This document shows, piece by piece, positions 3,001 to 60,170 of a DNA stretch of 60,447 nt. Numbering within the stretch: position 1 is the first letter of the stretch; each line of letters begins with the position of its first letter. Below the pieces are notes generated by a model. The model saw nothing but the letters and a program-made list of their open reading frames with translations. It made no database searches and was not told the DNA's origin. The translations under genes were made by a program, and so were the position numbers. The DNA lies in contig CALRGR010000005.1 of the NCBI GenBank assembly GCA_943357985.1, positions 1 to 60,447 of the forward strand, read 5' to 3'. The stretch comes from Candidatus Levybacteria bacterium GW2011_GWA1_37_16 (GTDB lineage Bacteria > Patescibacteriota > Microgenomatia > Levybacterales > UBA12049).

Positions 3001-3374
3001 TGTTGATTGTCGTCGAACGGACTGGCCGAAGCAATTCCCTCAATTTTTAGAAAATAAAAGAACTTGCGAAGAGCTGAAAGATGTCTTTTAAGGGAGCGAG
3101 GAGAAAGCTGATGCCCTGGTGTTATAACGTCAAGGAGAGTGCTTGACGTATCTCTAATTGAAGCCTTATTTGCTGTTTTATAAAGCTCAATTATTTGAGG
3201 AGTGACAGATGTGGGAGCAAAAGTCTTTTTAAATTCTTTTTCAAACCAGTGAATGAACTGGGTAATATCCGCTTTGTAGTTTTTAACCGTTGCTTTGGAG
3301 AGCTTTTTTTTCTGCCTGCCGGGAGGAAGGTTTTGTAAGTTTAGATATTGGACAAATTGTTCAGGCAGATTCAT
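1..3374 (-). CDS. Giant membrane-spanning surface protein (start complete, 3' end runs off the window; >1,120 aa): two N-terminal tyrosine-recombinase SAM-like/core-binding domains, one TM helix, then G/T/S/A/N-rich tail-fibre/beta-helix-like repeats
   Basis: Absent from the supplied ORF track because there is no stop inside the window. Manual minus-strand translation from ATG at 3374-3372 stays open to position 3; the frame was checked at 3009, 2697, 2217, 1887 and 3. It begins MNLPEQFVQYLNLQNLPPGRQKKKLSKATVKNYKADITQFIHWFEK...SPRSLKRHLSALRKFFYFLKIEG. A second unit reads SPLTIKNYVIDTRQFMQWAE...SPLSINRKLSSLRKYIAWAKEEGLI. The TM helix is FVHYLHFGALVILMSLLGFFIY. The distal part includes FQGKLTDSKGNPITGTSSVKFTIYDAEKKTGNALWTE and NVGIGTTTPGYKLDI. 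The V/P-rich plus-strand ORFs at 466-1857 are its antisense shadow. Confidence 0.8.
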   Translation of the reverse strand, partial: MNLPEQFVQYLNLQNLPPGRQKKKLSKATVKNYKADITQFIHWFEKEFKKTFAPTSVTPQIIELYKTANKASIRDTSSTLLDVITPGHQLSPRSLKRHLSALRKFFYFLKIEGIASASPFDDNQQSTINNQQPDPWHLKDFKNYLYVHSASPLTIKNYVIDTRQFMQWAEQVTNVAKEWQVADKNIFDKLNWKLVEEYKLHLIKSHSSPLSINRKLSSLRKYIAWAKEEGLIKRDASFAELPKTTETGIFSGIPQATPVSKPNYIPVPQQFATPAAEEPKQEPQEISKFSKVPPVRLVQKIIYAGDWLFDLIFIEPLALIVKGAELIVWKIKGKPVFETSKNKGEDIQVYNIKKKFYSSVSTNGMSIPQKTWHHIRFTRPQWYKNYHSHPFVHYLHFGALVILMSLLGFFIYQNLLFGPNSSQFTQIAQDENSIRRALLFQGKLTDSKGNPITGTSSVKFTIYDAEKKTGNALWTETDTINPKSDGTFSVALGNKNPLYQEMFVRNYTLWLGIAIRSDPELTPREHLTNVALSENSQRLDGMLPITQNKAGTKNVVLALDSSGNLTIGGKVSSTFQAIGGQFSLSGNVLFLTTVAGTNSDIILAPDGLGKIDIQKQIYNSSNSSTTPGAAGAVEIADNLFITASSSAQSALTINQTDTGPLISASSSGIAKFTVDGLGNTTIAGDLILTGSRISASTLTDANFGNSRFEVGSITTTGNFAQIGNVTFSTGTGSARLNGNTFIGTSSANTITFNGRVAQDSNLIPITTTGTNDLGSDSLPWDTLYVRNVKTGGTDGQQGWWTRTGTTLAPSNSGDNLSIEGTLAVTGATTLSSTLAVTGNTTVGGTFGATGATALSSTLSVSGATTLSSTLGVTGTTTLGNTFTVSGSNLTSLGGNLTVTGTAWTATPTISGLITATLGFDSNAASTVAGLTVDGAGNLTVSDGLTSLTSSATTSNTKALSVSQTGATIGTDYAGYFANTGAATTNVGLYATATGATNNYAAIFDAGNVGIGTTTPGYKLDIATSTASDRGINIANTATTGTNYGVYSSVTGAATANYGGYFVSTGATTDYGLAVAAMTGATSTGLDIGALSGTTANKGINIGAISGAGTGTGVDIGAFTNTGAT
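2981..3008. repeat. Perfect heptanucleotide tandem repeat GTTGATT x4 inside the giant ORF (encodes NQQSTINNQQ linker between the two SAM-like domains)
   Basis: Read directly: gttgatt gttgatt gttgatt gttgatt. Confidence 0.95.
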
Positions 3375-3900: not shown

Positions 3901-4872
3901 TTATTTTCTTAGACGGGATTTTAATTTAGCCTTAACTATCAATAACGACGATATAACTATAAGGCTTATAAGTAATATCTGTACCGGAGCTCCAATAAAG
4001 CGGGTGGTTTGGGTCAAGGCTGGGCTATGTTCGTAAAAAGTAAGGATTAATGTGGCTGTATAGGGTCCCAGCAGGAAAGTCTCCGGCCAAGCAGCGGTAA
4101 TAGATCTGGATGTGTTAGCGAGGATATTTGTTTTTTCTAGATCTACCCTGCCTACAGTCTGCCCAAATAGGTTTTTAATAAGAATATATCCTGATGTTGA
4201 TATAAATTGTTCTCCCTGGTTTGAGGTTTTAACCGAAAACTCAATAGGGCCTTTGTCTTTGAAGAATGATGAATTAAATTCGTTTATTTTGACTTGAGGC
4301 TTGGTAATCTGGCCTACGGTAAGAAGTACATTTGTTGCTACTGCAGTAATAATTTGAGATTTGTTCTTCTGAGCAGCATCCGTAGCAGGGGATGATGTGA
4401 ATAATAATGAAAAGTAATAGTCTGATAATGTTTCATCTTGAGTAATGTCTATGCGCAAGCTTAATTCTTTTTGTTGTTTTGGTCCGAGCTCTATAGAAGA
4501 AATTTCTTGATCTTTATCGAATACCTTAATTTTTTGAAATATGAGCGGATCTTTTAGATTAAGTTCACCACTTTTTAAATATCTTACCTGTCCATTCTCA
4601 TTGTCAGATTGAGTGAAGGGCTTAAAGCTAATATTAAAAGTTTCAGTTTGATCTGTTTGATTTTTGATTATAATGGGTGTTTTCAGGCTAACAGGGGCAG
4701 TTGCACGAATTTTGATAATAGGAGGATAAACCCCCAGTGAAAATGCAGATGCGTCTGCTTTCTGTGGAAATACTACCAATACTACCAATATTATCAATAC
4801 CACCAATGCCCCAATTTTAAATTCAAAATTTTTAATTTTTAATGAATTTTTAATGTTTAAATTTTTAGACAT
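3901..4872 (-). CDS. Cell-surface protein of unknown function with N-terminal signal/anchor and C-terminal TM anchor plus basic tail
   Basis: 323-aa ORF. N-terminal hydrophobic segment IGALVVLIILVVLVVF. C-terminus is ...APVQILLISLIVISSLLIVKAKLKSRLRK. The middle is beta-rich with alternating polar/hydrophobic residues. A DUF916/DUF3324-like architecture is only a guess. Confidence 0.55.
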   Translation of the reverse strand: MSKNLNIKNSLKIKNFEFKIGALVVLIILVVLVVFPQKADASAFSLGVYPPIIKIRATAPVSLKTPIIIKNQTDQTETFNISFKPFTQSDNENGQVRYLKSGELNLKDPLIFQKIKVFDKDQEISSIELGPKQQKELSLRIDITQDETLSDYYFSLLFTSSPATDAAQKNKSQIITAVATNVLLTVGQITKPQVKINEFNSSFFKDKGPIEFSVKTSNQGEQFISTSGYILIKNLFGQTVGRVDLEKTNILANTSRSITAAWPETFLLGPYTATLILTFYEHSPALTQTTRFIGAPVQILLISLIVISSLLIVKAKLKSRLRK

Positions 4873-4910
4873 TTTGAATTAAGATTTGATTTTAAATTAG
4901 AAATTAAGAA

Positions 4911-5651
4911 TTAAAAATTCGGAATCGCTATAAATGTTATAGAATTGCTGTAAAACTGCGGTGCTTGGTTTCCTGAGATATTGATTTTATAGCTAATTTG
5001 GGCGCTTGCGGATTGATTTGCTTGTAATATAATCTGTGGTTCGTTTGGCTTTTGGAACTGTCTGTATGAGTTGATATCACTAAATCCTTCTGCGCATGGA
5101 TTTGAAATTGCTTGCCCTGAGCCCGCCGAATGGGCCGAAGGACTTGTCCTGAGCGAAGCCGGAGGATCACATCTATATCCAAATCCATAAGTTAATGGTC
5201 CATTCCATGGTTGAGCGACTGAAGCTGTGCAAATTCCATTATCGCAAGTGGTATCCGGAATAAAGCCTTCTGAAGAATTATGTTTTAGCATATGATCTTC
5301 AAAAGCTTGTACCGAATATCCAAAGGCTGTAGAGGAGGACACCAAAAGATTATTTAGCCTTATTACCGGGTCTGTTGCGGAAAGTTGGCCATAGTCAATA
5401 AAATTCTCCGAAACAGAAAAAGAAAACGGCTGCTCCGAAGAAAAATCTTCAAATCCAACTTGAATACTATAATTTTTTCCGCTAAAAAGGCCGTGAAGTG
5501 TTGATATTGTCTCTTTTGGGACAGGAATGTCATCTTGCGGCTGGGTGACAATACTTCCGTCAATTGTATAATCTTGGGCAAAAGCAAACGGAATAGTGAA
5601 TAGTGAATAGTGAATAGTGAATAGTATGCTAATAATTAAGAGAATCTTCAC
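4911..5651 (-). CDS. Secreted protein of unknown function (signal peptide MKILLIISILFTIHYSLFTIPFAFAQ)
   Basis: 246-aa ORF with a typical signal peptide ending AFA-Q and four Cys in the mature part. It contains the heptamer tract 5591-5625 and the GC-rich element-derived segment PPASLRTSPSAHSAGSGQ (5113-5168). Confidence 0.6.
   Translation of the reverse strand: MKILLIISILFTIHYSLFTIPFAFAQDYTIDGSIVTQPQDDIPVPKETISTLHGLFSGKNYSIQVGFEDFSSEQPFSFSVSENFIDYGQLSATDPVIRLNNLLVSSSTAFGYSVQAFEDHMLKHNSSEGFIPDTTCDNGICTASVAQPWNGPLTYGFGYRCDPPASLRTSPSAHSAGSGQAISNPCAEGFSDINSYRQFQKPNEPQIILQANQSASAQISYKINISGNQAPQFYSNSITFIAIPNF
5591..5625. repeat. Perfect heptanucleotide repeat GAATAGT x5 within the signal-peptide codons of CDS 4911-5651
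   Basis: Read directly: gaatagt x5. On the coding strand this is ACTATTC x5, translated LFTIHYSLFTIP. Confidence 0.95.
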
Positions 5652-5717: not shown

Positions 5718-8303
5718 ATGAAACCGTATAATCCCTCTGAAGTCGAGAAGAAGTGGCAAAATGTTTGGGAGGAAACAAAAATTTACTCTCCCAACCTTGA
5801 TAGTGCAAAAAAACCTTTTTATAACCTCATGATGTTTCCTTATCCGTCTGCTGAAGGAATGCACGTTGGGAATATGTACGCTTTTACTGGCGCAGATATC
5901 TATGGCAGGTTCCAAAGAATGCAGGGGTATGACGTTTTTGAGCCCATTGGACTTGACGGATTTGGAATTCATTCTGAAAATTATGCAATAAAAGTGGGTA
6001 AGCACCCGGCAGAGCAGGCCAAAATTTCGGAAGAAAACTTCTATCGACAGCTCCGCTCTATTGGAAATTCTTATGAATGGACAAGAACTATTGAAACTTA
6101 TAAACCGGAATATTACAAATGGACGCAATGGCTTTTTATACAACTTTTCAAGGCTGGATTGGCATATAAAAAGAAAGCGCCTGTTAATTTCTGTCCTAAG
6201 GATCTAACAGTTTTGGCTGATGAGCAGGTAATTGATGGTAAATGTGAACGTTGCGGTTCTGTAGTTGAAAAAAGAGAGCTTGAGCAATGGTTTTTCAAGA
6301 TAACTGATTATGCCGAGAAATTGCTTAGTAATATCCCAGAGCTAGATTGGTCAGAAAAGGTCAAAGTTGCGCAGAAGAACTGGATTGGAAAAAGCGAGGG
6401 CGCAAGGATTCGTTTTGTCATCCTGAGTGAAGCGAAGGACCTACCTGCCTCGCAGCAAGGCGGGGATTCTTCGGCCATGCTTCAGAATGACAACTCAATT
6501 GAGGTATTTACAACCCGTCCAGATACTTTGTTTGGTGCGACATTTTTAGTTATTTCACCGGAACTTGCAAAAAAGTGGCTTGATGTTGGTTGGAAAGCTC
6601 CTACAGGGGTTGGGAAATATATCGAGGAGGCTCTTGTAAAAAGAACATTGATAGAAGAAAACACAGATAAAACGGGAGTTTTCTCGGGAATTTACGCAAT
6701 AAATCCTGTAAATCAAGAGAAAATCCCGATTTGGGTAGCTAATTATGTTCTTGCTGGTTATGGAACAGGCGCAATTATGGCAGTTCCTGCGCATGACCCG
6801 CGGGATTTTGAGTTTGCAAAAAAGTTTGATCTGCAAGTAAAGACTGTCATCCTGAGTGAAACGAAGGATCTACCTGCCTCGCAGCAAGGCGGGGATTCTT
6901 CGGCCATGTCTCAGAATGACAAAATGATTGAGGTTTATGTCGGAGAAGGGGAAATTATTAATTCAGGTGATTGGAATGGCTGGAAGACGCCTGAAAGTAT
7001 TTCAAAAGTCATAAAATGGTTGGAAAAGAAGGCAATTGGTAAAAGAGAAGTTAATTACCATTTAAGAGACTGGTTGATATCGCGCCAAAGATATTGGGGG
7101 CCTCCAATTCCAATGATTGATTGTCCAAAGTGCGGTTGGCAGCCAGTTGCCGAAGCTGATCTGCCTGTAGTTTTGCCGGAACTTGAGGACTTTAAGCCGG
7201 AAGGGAATGGAAAGTCTCCGCTTGCAAATATAGACACTTTTATAAATACCAAATGTCCTAATTGTGATGGTCCTGCAAAAAGGGAGACAGACGTCTCCGA
7301 CACCTTTTTGGACAGTGCATGGTACTTTTTCCGCTATGCCTGCACTGATATAGAAAGTAGTGCTTTTGATAGGGAAAGGCTAAAAAAATGGTTGCCGGTG
7401 AATATGTATATTGGCGGAGCAGAACACTCAGTGCTACACCTTTTATATTCACGGTTTATAGCAATGGTACTGGCTGATTTGAAATTTACGGATTTTGAAG
7501 AACCTTTCAAGAGATTCTACGCGCACGGACTGATCGTAAAAGATGGTGCCAAGATGAGCAAAAGCCGCGGAAATGTGATTATTCCGGATAAATACATAGC
7601 TAAATTCGGCGCAGATACACTCAGATGCTACCTAATGTTCCTTGGTCCTTTTTCAGCAGGCGGTGACTTTAGGGACACAGGAATTGAAGGAATGAATAGA
7701 TTTCTAAAAAGGGTTTGGAAGCTTTGCTCGGCGGTATTAAGTAGTAAGTATCAAGTATCAAGTACAGAAAATACTAAAGAGCTTGATACGGCAATGAATA
7801 AGACGATTAAAAAAGTGACAGAAGATATAGAAAATCTTAGATATAATACCGCGCTGGCGACCTTGATGGAGTATTATAACGTGCTTTCCGAGTTTTATAC
7901 TAAATACAAAATACTCGATACTAAATACTGCAAAACTTTTGTTTTGCTTCTGGCTCCTTTTGCCCCGCATATGACAGAAGAGCTGTATCAGCAATTGACA
8001 ATTGACAATTTACAATTTACTAATAAAGGCAAGAAAGATAGTCAATCATTTAATTCTATTCATCTTGAATCTTGGCCGAGTTTTGATGAGAAATCATTAG
8101 AAGAGTCTGAAGTAAATATTGCAGTTTCTGTAAATGGTAAGACACGAGACGTGATAAAGATCGAAAAGTCAAAAGTCGAAAGTCAAAAGTTTGTTGAGCA
8201 GTTGGCCAAAGAGAGTGAGAATGTAAAAAAGCACCTGCAAGGAAAGAAGATTTTAAAGACAGTTTACGTGCAGGGAAAAATAATAAATTTTGTTATAGAT
8301 TAA
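5718..8303 (+). CDS. leuS: Leucine--tRNA ligase
   Basis: 861 aa. Class I motifs are present: PYPSAEGMHVGN (HIGH-type) and KMSKSRGN. The editing-domain motif TTRPDT and overall LeuRS collinearity are also present. Confidence 0.97.
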   Translation: MKPYNPSEVEKKWQNVWEETKIYSPNLDSAKKPFYNLMMFPYPSAEGMHVGNMYAFTGADIYGRFQRMQGYDVFEPIGLDGFGIHSENYAIKVGKHPAEQAKISEENFYRQLRSIGNSYEWTRTIETYKPEYYKWTQWLFIQLFKAGLAYKKKAPVNFCPKDLTVLADEQVIDGKCERCGSVVEKRELEQWFFKITDYAEKLLSNIPELDWSEKVKVAQKNWIGKSEGARIRFVILSEAKDLPASQQGGDSSAMLQNDNSIEVFTTRPDTLFGATFLVISPELAKKWLDVGWKAPTGVGKYIEEALVKRTLIEENTDKTGVFSGIYAINPVNQEKIPIWVANYVLAGYGTGAIMAVPAHDPRDFEFAKKFDLQVKTVILSETKDLPASQQGGDSSAMSQNDKMIEVYVGEGEIINSGDWNGWKTPESISKVIKWLEKKAIGKREVNYHLRDWLISRQRYWGPPIPMIDCPKCGWQPVAEADLPVVLPELEDFKPEGNGKSPLANIDTFINTKCPNCDGPAKRETDVSDTFLDSAWYFFRYACTDIESSAFDRERLKKWLPVNMYIGGAEHSVLHLLYSRFIAMVLADLKFTDFEEPFKRFYAHGLIVKDGAKMSKSRGNVIIPDKYIAKFGADTLRCYLMFLGPFSAGGDFRDTGIEGMNRFLKRVWKLCSAVLSSKYQVSSTENTKELDTAMNKTIKKVTEDIENLRYNTALATLMEYYNVLSEFYTKYKILDTKYCKTFVLLLAPFAPHMTEELYQQLTIDNLQFTNKGKKDSQSFNSIHLESWPSFDEKSLEESEVNIAVSVNGKTRDVIKIEKSKVESQKFVEQLAKESENVKKHLQGKKILKTVYVQGKIINFVID
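6417..6491 (+). repeat. 75-bp GC-rich nested-palindromic element inserted in frame in leuS (copy 1; encodes VILSEAKDLPASQQGGDSSAMLQND)
   Basis: Sequence: gtcatcctgagtgaagcgaaggacctacctgcctcgcagcaaggcggggattcttcggccatgcttcagaatgac. The central hairpin is cctgcc...ggcggg. The outer arms gtcatcctgag / cttcagaatgac are imperfectly inverted. Confidence 0.9.
6846..6920 (+). repeat. 75-bp GC-rich nested-palindromic element inserted in frame in leuS (copy 2; encodes VILSETKDLPASQQGGDSSAMSQND)
   Basis: Differs from copy 1 at 4 of 75 positions by my alignment. It lies 429 bp downstream of copy 1 in the same orientation and frame. Confidence 0.9.
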
Positions 8304-16305: not shown

Positions 16306-16773
16306 ATGGAAAGAACAGTTGTTTTAGTAAAACCGGACGGAGTACAAAGAGCCTTAATCGGCAAGATTATTGACCGGTTTGAGAAAAAGGGCCTTAAATT
16401 AATAGGGCTTAAAATGATTTCTTTAAGTGACGCAATTTTGGATGAATGGTATTCTCATCACAAAGATAAATCCTTTTTTCCATCTCTCAAGTCTTATATG
16501 AAGTCTTTTCCTGTTGTTGCAATGCTTTGGGAAGGCGTTGACTCAGTAGTAACAGTTAGAAAATTAACAGGAATTACGAAGGCAAGAGAAGCAGACCCGG
16601 GGACAATCCGCGGAGACTTTGCAATGAGCCAGCAATATAATCTAATTCATGCTTCGGAGGATTCAGTTGTTGCTAAAAAAGAAGAAGCATTGGTTTTTAC
16701 AGAAGAAGAAATTTTCTCCTGGAAAAAAACAGATATAGGCCACATTTACCTGGACGAAGAACTAAAAAGTTAG
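16306..16773 (+). CDS. ndk: Nucleoside-diphosphate kinase
   Basis: MERTVVLVKPDGVQRALIGKIIDRFEKKGLKLIGLKM...; the catalytic His lies in NLIHASED. Confidence 0.9.
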   Translation: MERTVVLVKPDGVQRALIGKIIDRFEKKGLKLIGLKMISLSDAILDEWYSHHKDKSFFPSLKSYMKSFPVVAMLWEGVDSVVTVRKLTGITKAREADPGTIRGDFAMSQQYNLIHASEDSVVAKKEEALVFTEEEIFSWKKTDIGHIYLDEELKS

Positions 16774-21773: not shown

Positions 21774-22790
21774 ATGATGTCTAAGAGAATTGGTATTGAT
21801 TTGGGAACCGCAAATACGCTTGTTTATCTTGCAGGTGAGGGGGTTGTCTTAAATGAACCCACAGTTGTAGCTGTTACAGCAGAAGATAACAGGGTAGTTG
21901 CGGTTGGAAAAGAAGCAAAGGAAATGCTAGGAAGAACTCCAGGGAATATTGTAGCCATGAGGCCTCTTAAAGATGGGGTAATTGCGGACTATACAATAAC
22001 AGAGGCAATGCTTTCTTATTTTATAGACAAAGCCTGCGGCCGCTCCCGCTTTTTTAAGCCCGAGGTTATGGTTTGTATCCCATCAGGTGTCACGCAGGTT
22101 GAAAGAAGAGCCGTTTTAGACGCAACAATGGCAGCAGGAGCTAAGGTTGCCTATTTAATAGATGAGCCTCTTGCCGCCGCAATTGGAGCTAGAATTCCCA
22201 TTGCTCAAGCTGCAGGGCACATGGTTGTTGATATTGGCGGAGGATCAACAGAGTGCGCAGTAATATCTCTTGGAGGGGTTGTTGTTCATAGCTCGGTTAG
22301 GGTTGGAGGCAACAAAGTTGATGAGGCGATAGCAAATTATACCAAAAAGAAGTTTAACCTTTTTATTGGAGAAAGAACTGCGGAAGAGATCAAAATTGAA
22401 ATTGGAAACGCGCTCATAGAGGATAAAGAAGAAGCAGAGAAGAAGAAAATGGAAATTAGGGGAAGAGATAGCGTAACCGGCTTACCAAGAACAATAGAGT
22501 TAACAGAGACTCAAATAAATGAGGCTATTTCGTCTGTTCTTATGGATATTTTCCAGGCTGTTAAGGGCGTGCTTGAGCAGGCACCACCAGAACTAGCAAG
22601 CGATATTATAGATAAAGGAGTTGTTATGAGTGGAGGAACGTCTCTTCTCAAAAACCTAGACAAATTTATGACTAAAAACACTGGTGTTCCTTGTCATGTG
22701 GCCGAAGATGCGCTTTTGTGCGTAGTTAGGGGTACGGGAGTGGCTTTGGAGAATATAGAGCTCTATAAAAGGAGCATAAGTAGGAAATAG
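21774..22790 (+). CDS. mreB: Rod shape-determining actin homologue MreB (stand-alone copy)
   Basis: IGIDLGTANTLVY, DEPLAAAIGA, VVDIGGGSTE and GVVMSGGTSLLKNLD; 338 aa. Confidence 0.93.
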   Translation: MMSKRIGIDLGTANTLVYLAGEGVVLNEPTVVAVTAEDNRVVAVGKEAKEMLGRTPGNIVAMRPLKDGVIADYTITEAMLSYFIDKACGRSRFFKPEVMVCIPSGVTQVERRAVLDATMAAGAKVAYLIDEPLAAAIGARIPIAQAAGHMVVDIGGGSTECAVISLGGVVVHSSVRVGGNKVDEAIANYTKKKFNLFIGERTAEEIKIEIGNALIEDKEEAEKKKMEIRGRDSVTGLPRTIELTETQINEAISSVLMDIFQAVKGVLEQAPPELASDIIDKGVVMSGGTSLLKNLDKFMTKNTGVPCHVAEDALLCVVRGTGVALENIELYKRSISRK

Positions 22791-26742: not shown

Positions 26743-26814
26743 CCTTTGATAAACTTTAGAAAGAACTACTTAAGTTTAGTTGCTTCCCTCGCTTTCGCTC
26801 GGGACGCTCATGTC

Positions 26815-27207
26815 TTACTTTAGTTCGACACTCGCGCCTGCAGTTGTTAATTTTTCCTTAGCTTCTTCTGCGGTTTTCTTGTTGACTGCTGTCATGATCT
26901 CTTTTGGAGCTGCGTCAACTAAATCTTTAGCATCTTTAAGTCCCAATGTTGGAACTAACTCTCTAAGAGCTTTAATTACACTAATTTTGCTTGATCCGGA
27001 GCTTGCTATAACAACGTTAAAGACTGTTTGTTCTTCTACCGGTTCTCCTGCCTCTGCTGCTTCTTGTCCTGAGTTTGCCGAAGGGGCTGCAGCCATTGCT
27101 GCGGAAACGCCAAACTTTTCTTCCAAAGCTTTTACAAACTCCGAAAGCTGCAGAACTGACATCTCTTCAACTGTTTTTAATAAATCTTCTTGTGATACTT
27201 TTGCCAT
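26815..27207 (-). CDS. rplL: 50S ribosomal protein L7/L12
   Basis: MAKVSQEDLLKTVEEMSVLQLSEFVKALEEKFGV...LKDAKDLVDAAPKEI...; GGAGGGAGG lies upstream. Confidence 0.96.
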   Translation of the reverse strand: MAKVSQEDLLKTVEEMSVLQLSEFVKALEEKFGVSAAMAAAPSANSGQEAAEAGEPVEEQTVFNVVIASSGSSKISVIKALRELVPTLGLKDAKDLVDAAPKEIMTAVNKKTAEEAKEKLTTAGASVELK

Positions 27208-27232
27208 AAATACACCTCCCTCCGATCGGTAA

Positions 27233-27345
27233 TTACTAATTTCAAATTTCTAACCTGCCTCGCGGCAAGGCGGGTCAAATCTAAATGTTCAAAATTTAAA
27301 ACATTAAAAATTGAATAAAAATTAAGAATTAAAAATTATAAATTA
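27233..27345 (+). repeat. Dispersed AT-rich intergenic repeat, copy A (with 21-bp GC hairpin 27254-27274)
   Basis: Sequence: aatttctaa-cctgcctcgcggcaaggcggg-tcaaatctaaatgtt...acattaaaaattgaataaaaattaagaattaaaaattataaatta. It aligns with copies at 31324-31425 and 32546-32659. Confidence 0.85.
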
Positions 27346-30741: not shown

Positions 30742-31323
30742 CTAAAGCTTGGCCACCTGTAAAAAGTCTAGCTCAACTGGTGTTTCGCGTCCAAAAATAG
30801 AAACCAGGACTCTGATTTTGCCTTTTGCTTCATCAATATCATCAATTGTTCCTAGGAAATCTGCAAACGGTCCATCAATAATCTTAACGGCCTCGCCTTT
30901 AACAAAAGCTGCCTTATAAAGAGGCTCTTTCATATTCATAAAGGCCTGAATTGCTTCAACTTCTTTGTCTGAAATTGGAGTTGGTTTATTTCCGGCTCCA
31001 ATAAAAGAGGTAACTCCGGATGTAGTTCTGACCAAAAGCCAGGACTCATCATCCAAAATCATCTTAACTAATATATATCCCGGAAAAATTTTCTCTTGTA
31101 CAGTCTCTTTTTTGCCCTGGGAAACTTTGATTGTGTCACGCATTGGGATCATAACATCAAAAATTCTGTCTTCAAATCCCATTGCTTCCACTCTTTGCTT
31201 AAGAGATTTTGCAACTTTTCCTTCATGCCCGGCATAAGTGTGAACTATATACCACTTGCCACTATCACTAGCTTTTCCGACCGCTTCAGTCTGTTTTTCT
31301 TCGATTGATGTTTGCGTATCCAT
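30742..31323 (-). CDS. nusG: Transcription termination/antitermination factor NusG
   Basis: NGN domain WYIVHTYAGHEGKVAKSLKQRV. KOW motif GEAVKIIDGPFADFLGTIDDIDEAKGKIRVLVSIFGRETPVELDF. Confidence 0.93.
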   Translation of the reverse strand: MDTQTSIEEKQTEAVGKASDSGKWYIVHTYAGHEGKVAKSLKQRVEAMGFEDRIFDVMIPMRDTIKVSQGKKETVQEKIFPGYILVKMILDDESWLLVRTTSGVTSFIGAGNKPTPISDKEVEAIQAFMNMKEPLYKAAFVKGEAVKIIDGPFADFLGTIDDIDEAKGKIRVLVSIFGRETPVELDFLQVAKL

Positions 31324-31425
31324 AAGTTAAATTTCTAATTTCTAATTTCTAATCAAATCTAAATGTTTTAAATTAAAATATTAAAAATTGAATAAAAATT
31401 AAGAATTAAAAATTGTAAATTACTT
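31324..31425 (+). repeat. Dispersed AT-rich intergenic repeat, copy B (lacks the GC hairpin; contains AATTTCT x3)
   Basis: Aligns with copies A and C on both sides. The junction ttctaa|tcaaat is exactly where A and C carry cctgcctcgcggcaaggcggg. Confidence 0.85.
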
Positions 31426-31605
31426 TATTACTACCGATAATAATTTTGTTAAGATAAAGTCTATTCCTCCTATGTAAACGCCTACAAGCGCACTTACCAA
31501 AATAACTACTATTGTAAGCCTAACTACCTCTGTTCTTGCTGGCCAGACAACTTTTTTTAGTTCATCGTGAGTTTCACGCAAAAAACTTACAGGTGTCGTA
31601 GCCAT
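31420..31605 (-). CDS. secE: Preprotein translocase subunit SecE
   Basis: MATTPVSFLRETHDELKKVVWPARTEVVRLTIVVILVSALVGVYIGG.... The start was trimmed to the second Met. It sits upstream of nusG. Confidence 0.85.
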   Translation of the reverse strand: MATTPVSFLRETHDELKKVVWPARTEVVRLTIVVILVSALVGVYIGGIDFILTKLLSVVIK

Positions 31606-31666: not shown

Positions 31667-32545
31667 ATGAATAAAATTCGTAAAGCCGTAATACCCGCTG
31701 CCGGATTTGGAACCAGATTTCTTCCTCAAACAAAAGCAATGCCTAAAGAAATGCTTCCGATAGTTGATAAGCCAGTTATTCAATATGTTGTTGAAGAAGT
31801 TGTTGCATCAGGAATTAAAGATATAATTGTTGTAACGGGAGCTAACAAAAGAGCTATTGAGGACCACTTTGATACACCAAATGAAGATCTGGTGCAAAAT
31901 CTTCTTGCAGGGGACAAACAAAAACTTCTTGATGCAATTAGAGACCTTGCAGAAATGGCTAATTTTATTTATGTTCGCCAAAAGGGTGCTTACGGAAACG
32001 GAACGCCGGTACTTTCTGCTGAGCCTGTAATAGAAAATGAACCTTTTGCTGTTATTTGGGGAGATGAGTTTATTTATTCAGAGCCGCCAAGGTTAAAGCA
32101 AATGATTGATGTGCATGAGAAATACGGAGGAGTTGTAATCTCAGGAGTAAAAATTGAAAACAAAGCTGACTTAAGCAGGTATGGAATTGCAGATATTTCG
32201 CCTGTTGAGGGAAATGTCTATAAAATTAATGCAATTGTAGAAAAGCCTAAGCCTGAAGATGCACCTTCAAATCTTGCAACCCATGGTGCTTACATTTTGC
32301 CGCCTGATATATTCCCTGCCCTAAAGAATTTAAAACCCGGAAGGGGTGGGGAAATATGGTTGACCGACGCAATAAATCTACTAAGGGAGCAGGGAGTTCC
32401 AATTTACGCGGTTGAAATTGAAAACGGAAAATACTACGACACGGGGAATAAGATTGAATATATGAAAACAGTTGTAGAACTTGCGTTAAAACATCCGGAA
32501 ATAAATGGCGAATTTAGAGAATTCCTCAAAGGGTTAGAGCTTTAA
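31667..32545 (+). CDS. galU: UTP--glucose-1-phosphate uridylyltransferase
   Basis: KAVIPAAGFGTRFLPQTKAMPKEMLPIVDKPVIQYVVEE and VEKPKPEDAPSNLATHGAYIL. Confidence 0.92.
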   Translation: MNKIRKAVIPAAGFGTRFLPQTKAMPKEMLPIVDKPVIQYVVEEVVASGIKDIIVVTGANKRAIEDHFDTPNEDLVQNLLAGDKQKLLDAIRDLAEMANFIYVRQKGAYGNGTPVLSAEPVIENEPFAVIWGDEFIYSEPPRLKQMIDVHEKYGGVVISGVKIENKADLSRYGIADISPVEGNVYKINAIVEKPKPEDAPSNLATHGAYILPPDIFPALKNLKPGRGGEIWLTDAINLLREQGVPIYAVEIENGKYYDTGNKIEYMKTVVELALKHPEINGEFREFLKGLEL

Positions 32546-32659
32546 TTTCTAATTTCTAACCTGCCTCGCGGCAAGGCGGGTCAAATTCAAATGTTTAAAC
32601 ATTTAGAAATTAAAACATTAAAAATTCATTAAAAATTGAAAATTAAGAATTTTAAATTT
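32546..32659 (+). repeat. Dispersed AT-rich intergenic repeat, copy C (with GC hairpin 32560-32580)
   Basis: Sequence: taatttctaatttctaa-cctgcctcgcggcaaggcggg-tcaaattcaaatgttt...aaaattgaaaattaagaatt. Confidence 0.85.
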
Positions 32660-43172: not shown

Positions 43173-44354
43173 ATGTTTGATAAATTCTTTAGTATGTTTT
43201 CGTACGATATTGGCATTGACTTGGGTACTTCAAACACGCTCGTTTATGTTAGAGGAAAAGGAATTGTAATACGGGAGCCGTCCGTTGTTGCAATGCATAA
43301 AAAAACTAAAAAAATTGTGGCAATTGGAACAGAGGCAAAAAAAATGGTGGGAAAAACTCCTGCAACAATTATTACGATAAGACCACTAAGAGGTGGAGTA
43401 ATTTCTGATTTTGATGCAACAACAGCCATGATTGCTCATTATATTCAGGCAGTTCATGAAGTCTCAAATGTAATTCCGGTGCGTTTTGCAAAGCCTAAAG
43501 TTGTTGTAGGAATTCCATCATCTGTTACAGAAGTTGAAAGACGAGCGGTTTGGGAGTCAGCACTCAATTCGGGAGCGCGTGCCGCTTATTTAATTGAAGA
43601 ACCAATGGCGGCAGCAATTGGAGAAGGAGTTTCTGTATTTGCTCCAACTGGCGTTATGATTGTGGATATTGGCGGTGGGACTACGGAAATTGCAATTATT
43701 TCTTTGGGCGGAATTGTAATAAGTAAAAGTCTTAAGGTTGCCGGAGATGACATGGATGCTGCAATTGTTCACTACATAAGACTACGTCATGGGCTTTTAA
43801 TTGGGGAAAGAACTGCAGAAGATTTAAAGATTACAATTGGCAGTGCATATGAAAGTAAGTCAAAAACCAAAAGTTCCTCCTTCGCTAAAGCTTCGAAGGA
43901 CGAGCAAAAGTTAAAAGTTTCGGAAATTCTGGACGAAAAAGTTTTAGAAGAGGACGGGTTTGTTACTATTGAAGACCTGCCTGCCGGCAGGCAGGATAAG
44001 ATGGCGGTTGTTCGCGGTCGTGATATAGAAACGGGACTTCCAAAAAGTTTAAGAGTAACGGAGATTGAAATAAGAGAGGCATTGTCTCCTGTATTGTCGC
44101 AAATTATTCAGGGAATTGTGGAAGTTTTGGAAGAAGCGCCACCGGAACTTACATCTGATATTTTGGAGCACGGAATTTTACTAACAGGTGGTGGTTCAAT
44201 GTTGCCGGGATTTAATCATTTAATAGTTGATAGAACAAAAATCCCAGTCATAAAATCTGAGGATCCTCTAACTTCCGTTGCGCGTGGAACAGGAAAAGTT
44301 TTGGAAGACGATGCGCTGCTCCAAAGAGTCAAAGTCATCGGCGGCCTCAGGTAA
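43173..44354 (+). CDS. mreB: MreB paralogue heading the mreBCD-mrdA operon, with a ~50-aa insertion
   Basis: IGIDLGTSNTLVY, EEPMAAAIGEG, IVDIGGGTTE and GILLTGGGSMLPGF. It is 393 aa against 338 aa for the other copy. The extra segment is ESKSKTKSSSFAKASKDEQKLKVSEILDEKVLEEDGFVTIEDLPAGRQDKMAV. Confidence 0.9.
   Translation: MFDKFFSMFSYDIGIDLGTSNTLVYVRGKGIVIREPSVVAMHKKTKKIVAIGTEAKKMVGKTPATIITIRPLRGGVISDFDATTAMIAHYIQAVHEVSNVIPVRFAKPKVVVGIPSSVTEVERRAVWESALNSGARAAYLIEEPMAAAIGEGVSVFAPTGVMIVDIGGGTTEIAIISLGGIVISKSLKVAGDDMDAAIVHYIRLRHGLLIGERTAEDLKITIGSAYESKSKTKSSSFAKASKDEQKLKVSEILDEKVLEEDGFVTIEDLPAGRQDKMAVVRGRDIETGLPKSLRVTEIEIREALSPVLSQIIQGIVEVLEEAPPELTSDILEHGILLTGGGSMLPGFNHLIVDRTKIPVIKSEDPLTSVARGTGKVLEDDALLQRVKVIGGLR
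43976..43995. repeat. Perfect 20-bp palindrome CCTGCCTGCCGGCAGGCAGG inside the mreB insertion
   Basis: The sequence is its own reverse complement. A second hairpin, TCCTTCG ctaaagctt CGAAGGA, lies at 43878-43900. Confidence 0.95.
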
Positions 44355-48035: not shown

Positions 48036-48707
48036 CTATATTGTTTTTAGAATATTTGCCAATGCTCTTACTTCTGTTCTCACGGAGTCTATTGAATCAC
48101 TTCCATGAACTGCATTGTTGGGTAATCCTTGAGCGTGTCTTGCTCTTATTGAGTCCGGGTTTTCATCTCTTGCTCTTTGGGGATTGGTTGATCCCATTTT
48201 TTCTCTCCACCATTCTACCGCATCGCCTTGGGGTCTATAAATCAAAACAAAAGTTAGAGGGGCAGAAGATGTAAACCGCGAAACAGATTCCCAAACGGTT
48301 ATGCTTGGGTCGGCAGAGTCAGTCATTACTTCCTGGATTCTTTTATTGGGTCTATAGAAAGCTTCCGCTTGTTGTCTTGTTAATTTTAAAGACAAAGAGA
48401 AGATAACATTTTCTTCTCCTATTTCCCCAAGGATAGATTGCGCTGCTTGATCATCATCAGGACTTAAATCTCTTCCTTCATTTGCCTTAGGTTTTATGAT
48501 ACCGAGGGTTATTTTGCCTTCATTTATTAATGATTCTAACTCCGGATGAATAAGAACATCTGAAATTCTTGAAATTTTTTCTTTTTCCAGTTCAGCTATT
48601 GTTTTTTCTCCATCAAAAAATTCTCCTGCTTTAGCTCTTGAGCTAAACATTTCAGGAATTTGTAAGTCTGATAAATGGTCAACAATTCTTGTTTCTGCTG
48701 TTGTCAT
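48036..48707 (-). CDS. Divergent nucleoside-diphosphate-kinase-like protein with ~65-aa N-terminal extension
   Basis: ITLGIIKPKA..., AEAFYRP, MGSTNPQRARDENPDSIRARHA and NNAVHGSDSIDSVRTEV (catalytic His context). Confidence 0.7.
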   Translation of the reverse strand: MTTAETRIVDHLSDLQIPEMFSSRAKAGEFFDGEKTIAELEKEKISRISDVLIHPELESLINEGKITLGIIKPKANEGRDLSPDDDQAAQSILGEIGEENVIFSLSLKLTRQQAEAFYRPNKRIQEVMTDSADPSITVWESVSRFTSSAPLTFVLIYRPQGDAVEWWREKMGSTNPQRARDENPDSIRARHAQGLPNNAVHGSDSIDSVRTEVRALANILKTI

Positions 48708-57652: not shown

Positions 57653-57684
57653 ATCTGTTTCCATTTATTTGGAAACAGAAATTT

Positions 57685-59146
<1,462 letters not shown>

Positions 59147-59303: not shown

Positions 59304-60035
59304 ATGAAAAAAAGAGTAACAGCTATAGTGCCTGCGTATAACGAAGAAAAATATATCAAAGAAGTTCTGCTTCCTCTTGTTAATTCTCCCTATATAGACG
59401 AAGTCATCTGCGTAGATGATGGATCTACTGACTCAACTCTTGAAGTCTTAAAGAATTTCCGCGGAATTGAAGTTTTAAATTATACAAAAAACCATGGAAA
59501 AGCTTTTGCGATCGCAAGAGGCCTGGAAAAGGCAACGGGAGATATTGTTCTTTTCTTTGATGCCGATATTCACGGATTAACTGACGTGCATATAAAAAAG
59601 TTAATTTCACCTCTTTCCGGTGGGAAATATGATCTTTCAATAGGTTACCGTTCCAGCAAAATGGAGTCTTCTGTTGGAGTGCCTTTTAGTGGAGAGAGGG
59701 CATATTTTAGAAAAGATTTATTGCCTCACATCAAAAAGTTTGAGAATAAGGGTTATGGACTGGAGCTTTATCTTAATTTCCATTTTAAAAATAAGAGAAA
59801 AAAGATATTTAAGATGAATGGCGTATTAAGTTATGCCAAAAGCAATAAAGTTTCCAAAGTTAAGGCAATTAAGCTTCATAGCGACGAAACTTTTGAAATA
59901 ATCCAGGAGATTGTTAAAAGAAAAAACATGGTCTCTTATTTTCTTAACGCGTATTTGGTTTACGTTTATGTTAATGATCAAAGCATTAGTAAATATTTAT
60001 CCTACAGATCTTTCATAGAATACATTCAAAAATAA
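59304..60035 (+). CDS. GT2-family glycosyltransferase
   Basis: VTAIVPAYNEEKYIKEVLLPL, VICVDDGSTDST and LFFDADI (DxD). Confidence 0.85.
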   Translation: MKKRVTAIVPAYNEEKYIKEVLLPLVNSPYIDEVICVDDGSTDSTLEVLKNFRGIEVLNYTKNHGKAFAIARGLEKATGDIVLFFDADIHGLTDVHIKKLISPLSGGKYDLSIGYRSSKMESSVGVPFSGERAYFRKDLLPHIKKFENKGYGLELYLNFHFKNKRKKIFKMNGVLSYAKSNKVSKVKAIKLHSDETFEIIQEIVKRKNMVSYFLNAYLVYVYVNDQSISKYLSYRSFIEYIQK

Positions 60036-60098: not shown

Positions 60099-60170
60099 GG
60101 CGCGGTGGCGAAGAGGTAACGCAGGAGTTTGCAAAACTTCCATGCAGGGGTTCGATTCCCCTCCGCGCCT
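60099..60170 (+). tRNA. tRNA-Cys (anticodon GCA)
   Basis: GGCGCGG TG GCGA AGAGGTAA CGC A GGAGT TTGCAAA ACTTC CATGC AGGGG TTCGATT CCCCT CCGCGCC T. Confidence 0.88.

Follow-up and report, generated by a model that had tools for sequence, protein, structure and literature searches.

The 60,447-nt stretch analyzed here (the window; contig CALRGR010000005.1 of Candidatus Levybacteria bacterium GW2011_GWA1_37_16) carries an mreB gene (43173..44354, + strand), whose 393-aa open reading frame (ORF) includes an expanded, hypervariable loop of 52 codons (43851..44006, + strand), and it is the two short GC-rich hairpins inside this loop that are the main subject of this analysis. The gene is followed by mreC (44401..), mreD (45195..) and the gene for PBP2 (45605..). 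Its product can be assigned to the cell-shape protein MreB by its sequence family (MreB_Mbl, which Pfam detects in the orthologues), by its actin-like fold and by the mreB-mreC-mreD-PBP2 neighborhood; PF06723 is present in the orthologue clusters, including one that contains the window's MreB itself. Synteny is conserved, with one gene order (a Wzy_C/TPR gene, mreB, mreC, mreD, PBP2, dprA and topA) kept in the relatives and these genes also present in the window, and the relatives' neighboring genes carry the Pfam domains MreC, MreD and PBP_dimer/Transpeptidase in the window's order. The window's mreB and mreC lie next to each other; in the related loci L003, L004, L005, L155, L156 and L159 the spacer between them holds one or two additional genes, for example one for a Fic-domain protein in L156 and unannotated ORFs of 139–392 aa elsewhere, and gene insertion seems to have a hot spot in this spacer. 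The analysis covered 60 kb from the source genome together with roughly 240 kb of related loci, mostly picked via mreB.

The loop runs from IGSAY to VVRGR and reads ESKSKTKSSSFAKASKDEQKLKVSEILDEKVLEEDGFVTIEDLPAGRQDKMA. Its 52 residues compare with 12–14 in the stand-alone MreB paralogue of the window (21774..22790, + strand; 338 aa), which served as the short-loop comparison sequence, and with 9 residues in E. coli MreB. Alignment with these two proteins places 39–44 additional residues between IGSAY and VVRGR. This agrees with the original prediction, made from the sequence alone, that the mreBCD-linked copy carries an additional segment relative to the stand-alone one; the motifs TCCTTCG (43878–43884) and CGAAGGA (43894–43900), and the perfect 20-nt palindrome CCTGCCTGCCGGCAGGCAGG at 43976–43995, to which it drew attention, are all present.

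Codon-level DNA alignment of the window with the orthologous loci L001 (P0003), L005 (P0002), L003 (P0006) and L004 (P0021) showed that the window-specific differences form two discrete blocks, which we refer to as unit 1 and unit 2. Unit 1 (43875..43904, + strand) is a 30-nt GC-rich hairpin, TCCTCCTTCGCTAAAGCTTCGAAGGACGAG, which encodes SSFAKASKDE and is an inverted repeat with arms of 10 nt each (43875–43884 and 43894–43903; 90% complementary). Relative to the closest orthologue, L001 (90% amino acid identity), it is a clean and exact 30-nt indel. It sits between two CAAAAGT heptamers of a microsatellite, the left part of which (43860..43874, + strand; TCAAAAA CCAAAAGT; direct repeat D1) encodes K-rich residues and is represented in orthologues by (CAAAAGT)n or (CAAAAAT)n arrays, and the right part of which (43905..43919, + strand) reads CAAAAGT TAAAAGT T; the heptamer count is equal in the filled and the empty alleles. 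Unit 2 (43976..43995, no strand assigned) is the 20-nt palindrome itself, encoding LPAGRQ. In the comparison with orthologues its block, CCTGCCTGCCGGCAGGCAGGA (about 21 nt), stands in place of the 12-nt A-rich AAAAAAAGGAGA of L001 and L005, a net difference of +9 nt. The palindrome has a single exact occurrence in the window, against 0.00 expected in shuffled sequences, and is the longest perfect GC-rich hairpin in the whole window, whose GC content is 38.7%.

Both units are found again at the same sites in other orthologues, unit 1 in L004 (74% protein identity) with 27/30 nt matching and unit 2 in L003 (83% identical) with one central mismatch, in each case within loop sequence that is barely alignable with that of the window. 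Sequence related to unit 1 is also present in another ORF of L130 and in L049. Among low-stringency contigs, those of other loci (runs X6 and X7) add extra depth over the bins of unit 1 and unit 2 and not between them, and no presence/absence polymorphism of the units was seen in the low-stringency contigs from related-strain runs.

The segment from IGSAY to (V/I)(V/I)RGRD was extracted from the 120 best-matching orthologues, which come from Levybacteria-like Patescibacteria (named Candidatus Levyibacteriota, Levybacteria or Patescibacteria). The loop is expanded in all of these best matches (16–59 residues, in proteins of 357–400 aa), with conservation limited to the first few residues (E/Q-x-K) and to the end (E/D-K/R-M-A). 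The closest relatives, P0002–P0004 (87–90% identical), have loops of 36–39 residues without the palindrome and share the window's backbone ...KVSE-LDEKILEEDG...DKMA. Since they share most of the additional residues without having the palindrome, the segment of about 50 codons is not one insertion: most of the window's loop is inherited, and loop expansion is lineage-wide. The element-like part of the loop is only the 30 nt of unit 1 and the approximately 21 nt of unit 2 that replace 12 nt. Therefore, the proposal of a mobile-element-derived insertion of about 50 codons holds for the two hairpins and fails for the segment as a whole, and the contrary evidence that the prediction had anticipated, an insertion common to orthologues that lack the palindromic DNA, is partly what was found, with expanded loops in 120/120 orthologues and no palindrome in the closest of them.

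In different orthologues, GC-rich and mostly palindromic units of 17–30 nt have repeatedly been added in or beside the microsatellite. The unit is CCGGCCAAAGGCCGG (peptide RPKAGRP) in L003 and L128, ATCCGCCAGCAGGCGGAT in L137, and in L136 GCCTCGCAGCAAGGCGGG, which is the core of the leuS inserts of the window described below. L155 and L156, which are 92% identical at the nucleotide level across the gene, are distinguished by a single indel of 21 nt, which lies in an A8 run and contains CCAGCCTACCGGCAGGCAGG, which is the window's palindrome with two uncompensated arm changes. In a clade whose distal half of the loop is conserved (...SGF.VHD.EAKQERMA), L158 represents the empty allele and is pure (CAAAAAT)x4, and GC-rich units lie inside a heptamer array of this type in L157, L159, L160 and L161. 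These units are TCCCGATTTAATCGGGA in L159 and CCTGCCTCGCCGGCAGGCAGG in L157, the latter at a heptamer junction matching that of unit 1 of the window, while L160 and L161 share one unit, CCGTTCGGCAAGCTCAGG, whose translation is TRSASSGQ in the frame of one and SVRQAQDK in that of the other; therefore, it is the DNA that recurs and not the peptide. In a neighbor-joining tree calculated with the loop masked, the cassettes are scattered among clades, and sister taxa carry different cassettes or none; with sequences this similar the tree is not strongly resolved, yet the patchiness runs through all of it. In the indel-verified events, the insertion points are microsatellite unit boundaries or A8 runs. 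A generic scan for sharply bounded GC islands was uninformative, returning 12.5% against a background of 10.3% and mostly picking up ordinary conserved codons, and the association with heptamers is therefore drawn solely from the indel-verified events, which number about a dozen and are incompletely independent. Discrete, dispersed DNA units enter a pre-existing disordered loop, and their entry points cluster at A-rich heptamers or A8 runs.

The units belong to small dispersed repeat families, whose members are likewise present in frame within leuS, PBP2, topA and a Wzy-like gene, as well as in intergenic DNA. In leuS of the window there are two inserts, a 75-nt (25-codon) palindromic element (insert 1, 6417..6491, + strand) with the inner core CCTGCCTCGCAGCAAGGCGGG at 6444–6464, and a second copy (insert 2, 6846..6920, + strand) with its inner core at 6873–6893; they are contained in two 90-nt repeats that are 91% identical and 429 nt apart. 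The inserts have a nested structure, VILSEAKDLPASQQGGDSSAMLQND, in which the outer arms GTCATCCTGAG...CAGAATGAC enclose the inner CCTGCCTCGCAGCAAGGCGGG hairpin. Two intergenic copies of the leuS-type core (CCTGCCTCGCGGCAAGGCGGG) lie at 27254..27274 (+ strand), just 3' of the ORF 26780..27232, and at 32560..32580 (+ strand), just 3' of the ORF 31667..32545, and neither is terminator-like. An 82-nt intergenic repeat, 84% identical between its copies at 27237–27318 and 32543–32624, is located 3' of these two + strand ORFs; it consists of a GC hairpin core within AT-rich AAATTTCTAA / AAATTAAGAATTAAAAATT-type motifs, is likewise not terminator-like, and its AT-rich motifs appear again near 4813–4928 and 31314–31446. 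A degenerate copy of the palindrome, TCTGCCTGCCGGGAGGAAGG (3311..3330, no strand assigned), with 3 mismatches and the peptide LPPGRQK, falls in the N-terminal codons of a minus-strand ORF. This ORF runs from 3374 off the window start, is stop-free for more than 1,126 codons, and has Phage_int_SAM-like domains in its first 400 residues.

Among the relatives, one site in PBP2 holds CCTGCCTTGCCGGCAGGCAGG (PALPAGRQ) in L158 and CCTGCCTTGCGGCAAGGCGGG (PALRQGG) in L159 and is empty in L161 and in the window, whereas the RQAQ unit in topA is present in L159 and in neither L161 nor the window; further copies are in the Wzy_C gene of L160 and in an unidentified ORF of L130. The mreB-type and the leuS inserts both contain a CCTGCCT...AGGC(A/G)GG hairpin, and intermediate variants link the two forms. 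The PBP2 pair of L158 and L159, together with L157, indicates that the mreB-type and leuS-type hairpins are variants of one family. This bears out the earlier observation of motifs common to the MreB loop (DLPAGRQD) and the leuS inserts (DLPASQQGG), and with it the view that the in-frame hairpins in an essential gene are DNA-level insertions of the repeat family to which the leuS inserts belong. All net indels in the mreB, PBP2 and topA comparisons are multiples of three and stop-free; therefore, neither removal nor bypass is necessary, and ordinary translation suffices. Translational bypass, a mini-intron and an intein were accordingly rejected; for an intein the units are, moreover, much too short.

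Outside this lineage, at least 120 genome loci and 35 stretches of IMG/VR viral contigs contain the exact 20-mer, compared with a chance expectation of about 0.5 occurrences in 596 Gb (a uniform-composition estimate). The loci listed are from Patescibacteria, Bacteroidota, Omnitrophota, Planctomycetota, Proteobacteria and others. At only 6/123 sites does the match extend by at least 3 bp into the flanks, and therefore the 20-mer behaves as a discrete unit. The flanks were analyzed at 163 non-redundant sites (L007–L126 and L162–L196). The 20-mer is abutted by direct repeats of 7 nt, allowing no more than one mismatch, at 13 of these sites (background 0.39%), compared with two sites each for length 6 (0.41%) and length 8 (0.10%); exact abutting repeats of at least 7 nt occur at 6 sites (0.11%), and period-7 tandem arrays abut it at 8 (0.66%). 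For example, we found AATTACG-unit-(AATTACG)x3, TCTAAAA-unit-TCTAAAATCTAAA and CCTCACC-unit-CCTCACC, a 7-nt flanking pattern that mirrors the CAAAAGT-unit-CAAAAGT arrangement of the MreB loop. The putative viral contigs L182, L189 and L190 (IMGVR_UViG_3300037242_000417) and L168 contain many copies of the 20-mer (at least 6 in one contig of 29.5 kb, and 3 within 1.1 kb), which lie in longer repeats of both orientations. In the IMG/VR contig L186, the 20-mer (2284–2303) is situated in the variable loop of a tRNA-Met, where it forms a long variable arm; ARAGORN predicts a tRNA of 92 nt when the unit is present, and a canonical 72-nt tRNA-Met after exactly 20 nt are excised. In L193, L021, L043 and L091 the 20-mer comes right after a D-loop-like TAGCTCAGTGGTAGA motif, and L163 has a truncated variable-loop flank of the L186 type; at these five loci excision yields no ARAGORN-callable tRNA, and L186 alone gave a clean result.

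The AlphaFold2 model of the window's MreB (65-sequence alignment; pTM 0.81) compares with the MreB structures of T. maritima, C. crescentus and Geobacillus at target-normalised TM scores of 0.89–0.94 (about 0.92). Its pLDDT is below 50 at residues 230–260 and 268–273 and otherwise high except at the termini, and the loop is predicted to be intrinsically disordered and to lie on subdomain IIB. Modelling had been proposed as a check on whether the insert lies away from the filament and membrane interfaces; on this question, the tolerance of the site seen in experiments is the stronger argument. The loop corresponds to IGSAYPG/DEVREIEVRGR of E. coli MreB, in which G228 and D229 stand on either side of the slash. 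It had also been considered notable that MreB tolerates such a loop. The essential protein does carry the units in frame, but this is less notable than had been suggested, since in enterobacterial MreB the site accepts fluorescent proteins of about 240 residues. MreB sandwich fusions have been published with the insertion at G228/D229 (PMC11247099), and an enterobacterial MreB sandwich fusion is functional as the sole copy. The loop site is thus known to be insertion-tolerant, and therefore MreB function is probably unharmed by the units.

From these observations, we consider it probable that the units are neutral passengers, belonging to a family of ultra-short dispersed palindromic repeats, in a lineage-wide permissive loop of MreB. 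They would arrive as DNA, and the survivors would be those arrivals that are in frame and stop-free in permissive disordered loops of essential proteins; there they would be translated as meaningless peptides (SSFAKASKDE, LPAGRQ) and would then decay by mutation. With lower confidence, the route of arrival may be transposition in trans or templated patch insertion at slippage-prone A-rich repeats, and the flanking repeats of length 7 suggest staggered-cut integration by an enzyme acting in trans. Several points weigh against this explanation. No transposase or RAYT gene is found among the 40 ORFs of the window, and the copy number there is low (1–5 per family in 60 kb). Flanking direct repeats are missing from about 90% of the 20-mer sites, and where filled and empty alleles form clean coding pairs, they differ by +21 or +30 nt without an additional 7 nt; for these events, therefore, duplication of 7 bp is not demonstrated. 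Orthologues that are not sisters (window/L003 and window/L004) have the same unit at the same codon, and therefore site-specific re-insertion, short-patch recombination or repeated precise loss is needed. The asymmetric leuS-type core is in the sense orientation in all of its coding copies, although these are few and not independent, and the neutrality of the units is something that we infer.

A more far-reaching version, which we put forward tentatively and regard as doubtful, is that CCTGCCTGCCGGCAGGCAGG and its relatives of 17–30 nt are autonomous-in-trans mobile units, each with two abutted 10-bp terminal repeats and generating a 7-bp target duplication, that have spread across phyla and phages into protein loops and even tRNAs, with the heptamer arrays as footprints of repeated visits. 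A serious alternative, although we think it rather unlikely, dispenses with a mobile element: template switching or short-patch gene conversion would copy the units into A-rich repeats as repair filler, and the array would be nothing more than a fragile site. Insertion at microsatellite unit boundaries or within A8 runs fits such templated patch insertion, as do the replacement of sequence by unit 2 instead of mere addition, the clean coding pairs without duplication, and the absence of a transposase from the ORFs of the window. However, the 20-mer is sharply bounded in more than 150 unrelated contexts, the excess of abutting repeats is specific to length 7, as would be expected of staggered-cut integration, and some viral contigs hold many copies.

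The remaining alternatives place the cause of the pattern in the assembly, in RNA or in the encoded peptides. That the loop is an assembly artefact or a chimera has an almost negligible probability. Mis-joins can yield perfect palindromes, but Logan contigs from four runs of three studies cover 43600–44250 with zero differences, and a fifth run (X5) has 0 differences across 43600–44206. The runs containing the window's sequence are freshwater metagenomes, and this support comes from contigs and not from raw reads. Since identical contigs were obtained from independent runs, mis-assembly is very unlikely; in addition, the reading frame is intact, and orthologues in other assemblies have the same units with point differences. 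The check for a chimera that the original prediction had called for thus came out in favor of the sequence, and we rejected an artefact on the identity of the contigs from several runs. It is also improbable that the hairpins are functional RNA or DNA structures, such as a hairpin for pausing, processing or stabilizing the mRNA of mreBCD, or a terminator acting on antisense transcripts. The local hairpin of the palindrome is stable (about -17.8 kcal/mol), and the sense-only orientation of the coding copies of the asymmetric core CCTGCCTCGCNGCAAGGCGGG, in which T-G becomes a U-G wobble, is a weak hint at an RNA-level or strand-specific constraint; most units also follow an A-rich tract, so that the antisense strand presents a hairpin and a T-rich tail. 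However, the hairpins are altogether missing in the closest relatives, the arm decay in L155 is uncompensated, and the entire insert is no more stably folded than its shuffles (z = -1.74), which leaves a significant RNA structure of the whole insert unsupported. An A-rich flank is expected regardless in a lysine-rich loop. An intrinsic terminator, sense or antisense, was rejected, with a T-tail at 21/123 sites against a background of 20.9% and terminator scans of both strands that flag no unit. Less probable still is that selection acts on the inserted peptides (SSFAKASKDE, DLPAGRQD) as protein motifs, for example a binding site on an MreB tether. The expanded loop with its conserved end (E/D-K/R-M-A) is kept in 120/120 orthologues and some cassettes recur in several clades, as selection on a motif might produce, but the loop is hypervariable in length and sequence and predicted to be disordered, one DNA unit gives unrelated peptides in different frames, cassettes are missing in sister taxa, and identical DNA units are present in unrelated proteins and in intergenic DNA.

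Palindromic units of this kind have counterparts among known repeats. Rickettsia palindromic elements (RPEs) are dispersed palindromic repeats of an AT-rich reduced genome that are often in frame in unrelated and often essential genes, where they are tolerated at surface positions (PMC10969869). The in-frame dispersed palindromic repeats in unrelated genes described here (mreB, leuS, PBP2, topA and Wzy_C) resemble them in this respect. By contrast, RPEs are about 100–150 bp long with one conserved peptide per family, whereas our units are 17–30 nt (75 nt in the nested leuS form), are read in varied frames, and have no known relation to Rickettsia sequences. Repetitive extragenic palindromic (REP) sequences and REPINs are dispersed, GC-rich imperfect palindromes of about 20–40 nt, and an IS200/IS605-like single-strand mechanism that recognizes hairpins has been proposed for them (PMC3116915). 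Short imperfect palindromes are likewise repeated in the window. However, REPs are extragenic inverted doublets beside a RAYT gene, whereas the units here are singlets, many of them intragenic, with no RAYT among the 40 ORFs of the window, and the 7-bp flanking repeat is not a signature of the IS200 type. [quoted passage not shown] Unlike SPRITE-type or terminator-like repeats, the units show no excess of a GC hairpin followed by a T-tract.

Cyanobacterial small dispersed repeats (SDR) and the GC clusters and byp elements of yeast mitochondria are hairpin units of about 20–50 nt. They invade AT-rich genomes and are found there in coding regions and within other repeats too, and byp elements are skipped by the ribosome. 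In scale, the SDR and the GC clusters are the closest to the units described here, although hosts and sequences differ, and no skipping is needed here because the indels are in frame. The engineered MreB sandwich fusions with mCherry, msfGFP and mNeonGreen at G228/D229 occupy the same IGSAY-VRGR loop, but these are artificial folded domains, whereas the natural inserts are short, disordered and polymorphic. In the literature, we found neither the sequence of the 20-mer nor in-frame palindromic repeats in the candidate phyla radiation (CPR), with a coverage that was incomplete and leaves an earlier description possible. The units look like an undescribed and unusually small kind of dispersed, possibly mobile DNA.

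The window has several other features. A full-length 16S rRNA gene (57683–59146) is followed by a family-2 glycosyltransferase gene (59304–60035) and a tRNA gene (60099–60170); no 23S gene comes after the 16S gene, and the rRNA genes are apparently unlinked within the window. The ORF for ribosomal protein L1 (29467–30270, 267 aa) matches the Pfam L1 profile only at residues 144–259 (profile positions 70–197), and the N-terminal half of this L1 is divergent or contains additional sequence. There are two nucleoside diphosphate kinase genes (16306–16773 and 48036–48707), and the second product (223 aa) is extended at its N-terminus by about 90 residues that have no Pfam match.

For the biology of MreB itself the finding is an ordinary one, in that the loop chosen by cell biologists for sandwich fusions is also the one that nature uses, and the insert in the window represents one state of a loop that varies across the lineage. 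Its wider meaning is that ultra-short palindromic units repeatedly enter essential genes (mreB, PBP2, topA and leuS) of streamlined CPR genomes, and many filled and empty alleles of the MreB slot exist in nature for work on the mechanism. If the units are mobile, they would be among the smallest transposable DNAs known and would extend the lower size limit of such elements, and the MreB loop would be a natural insertion trap that records their activity. They would then also give minimal genomes a source of rapid loop evolution, and would be the cause of the odd recurring peptides (LPAGRQ, SFAKASEDK and RQAQDK) in CPR protein predictions.

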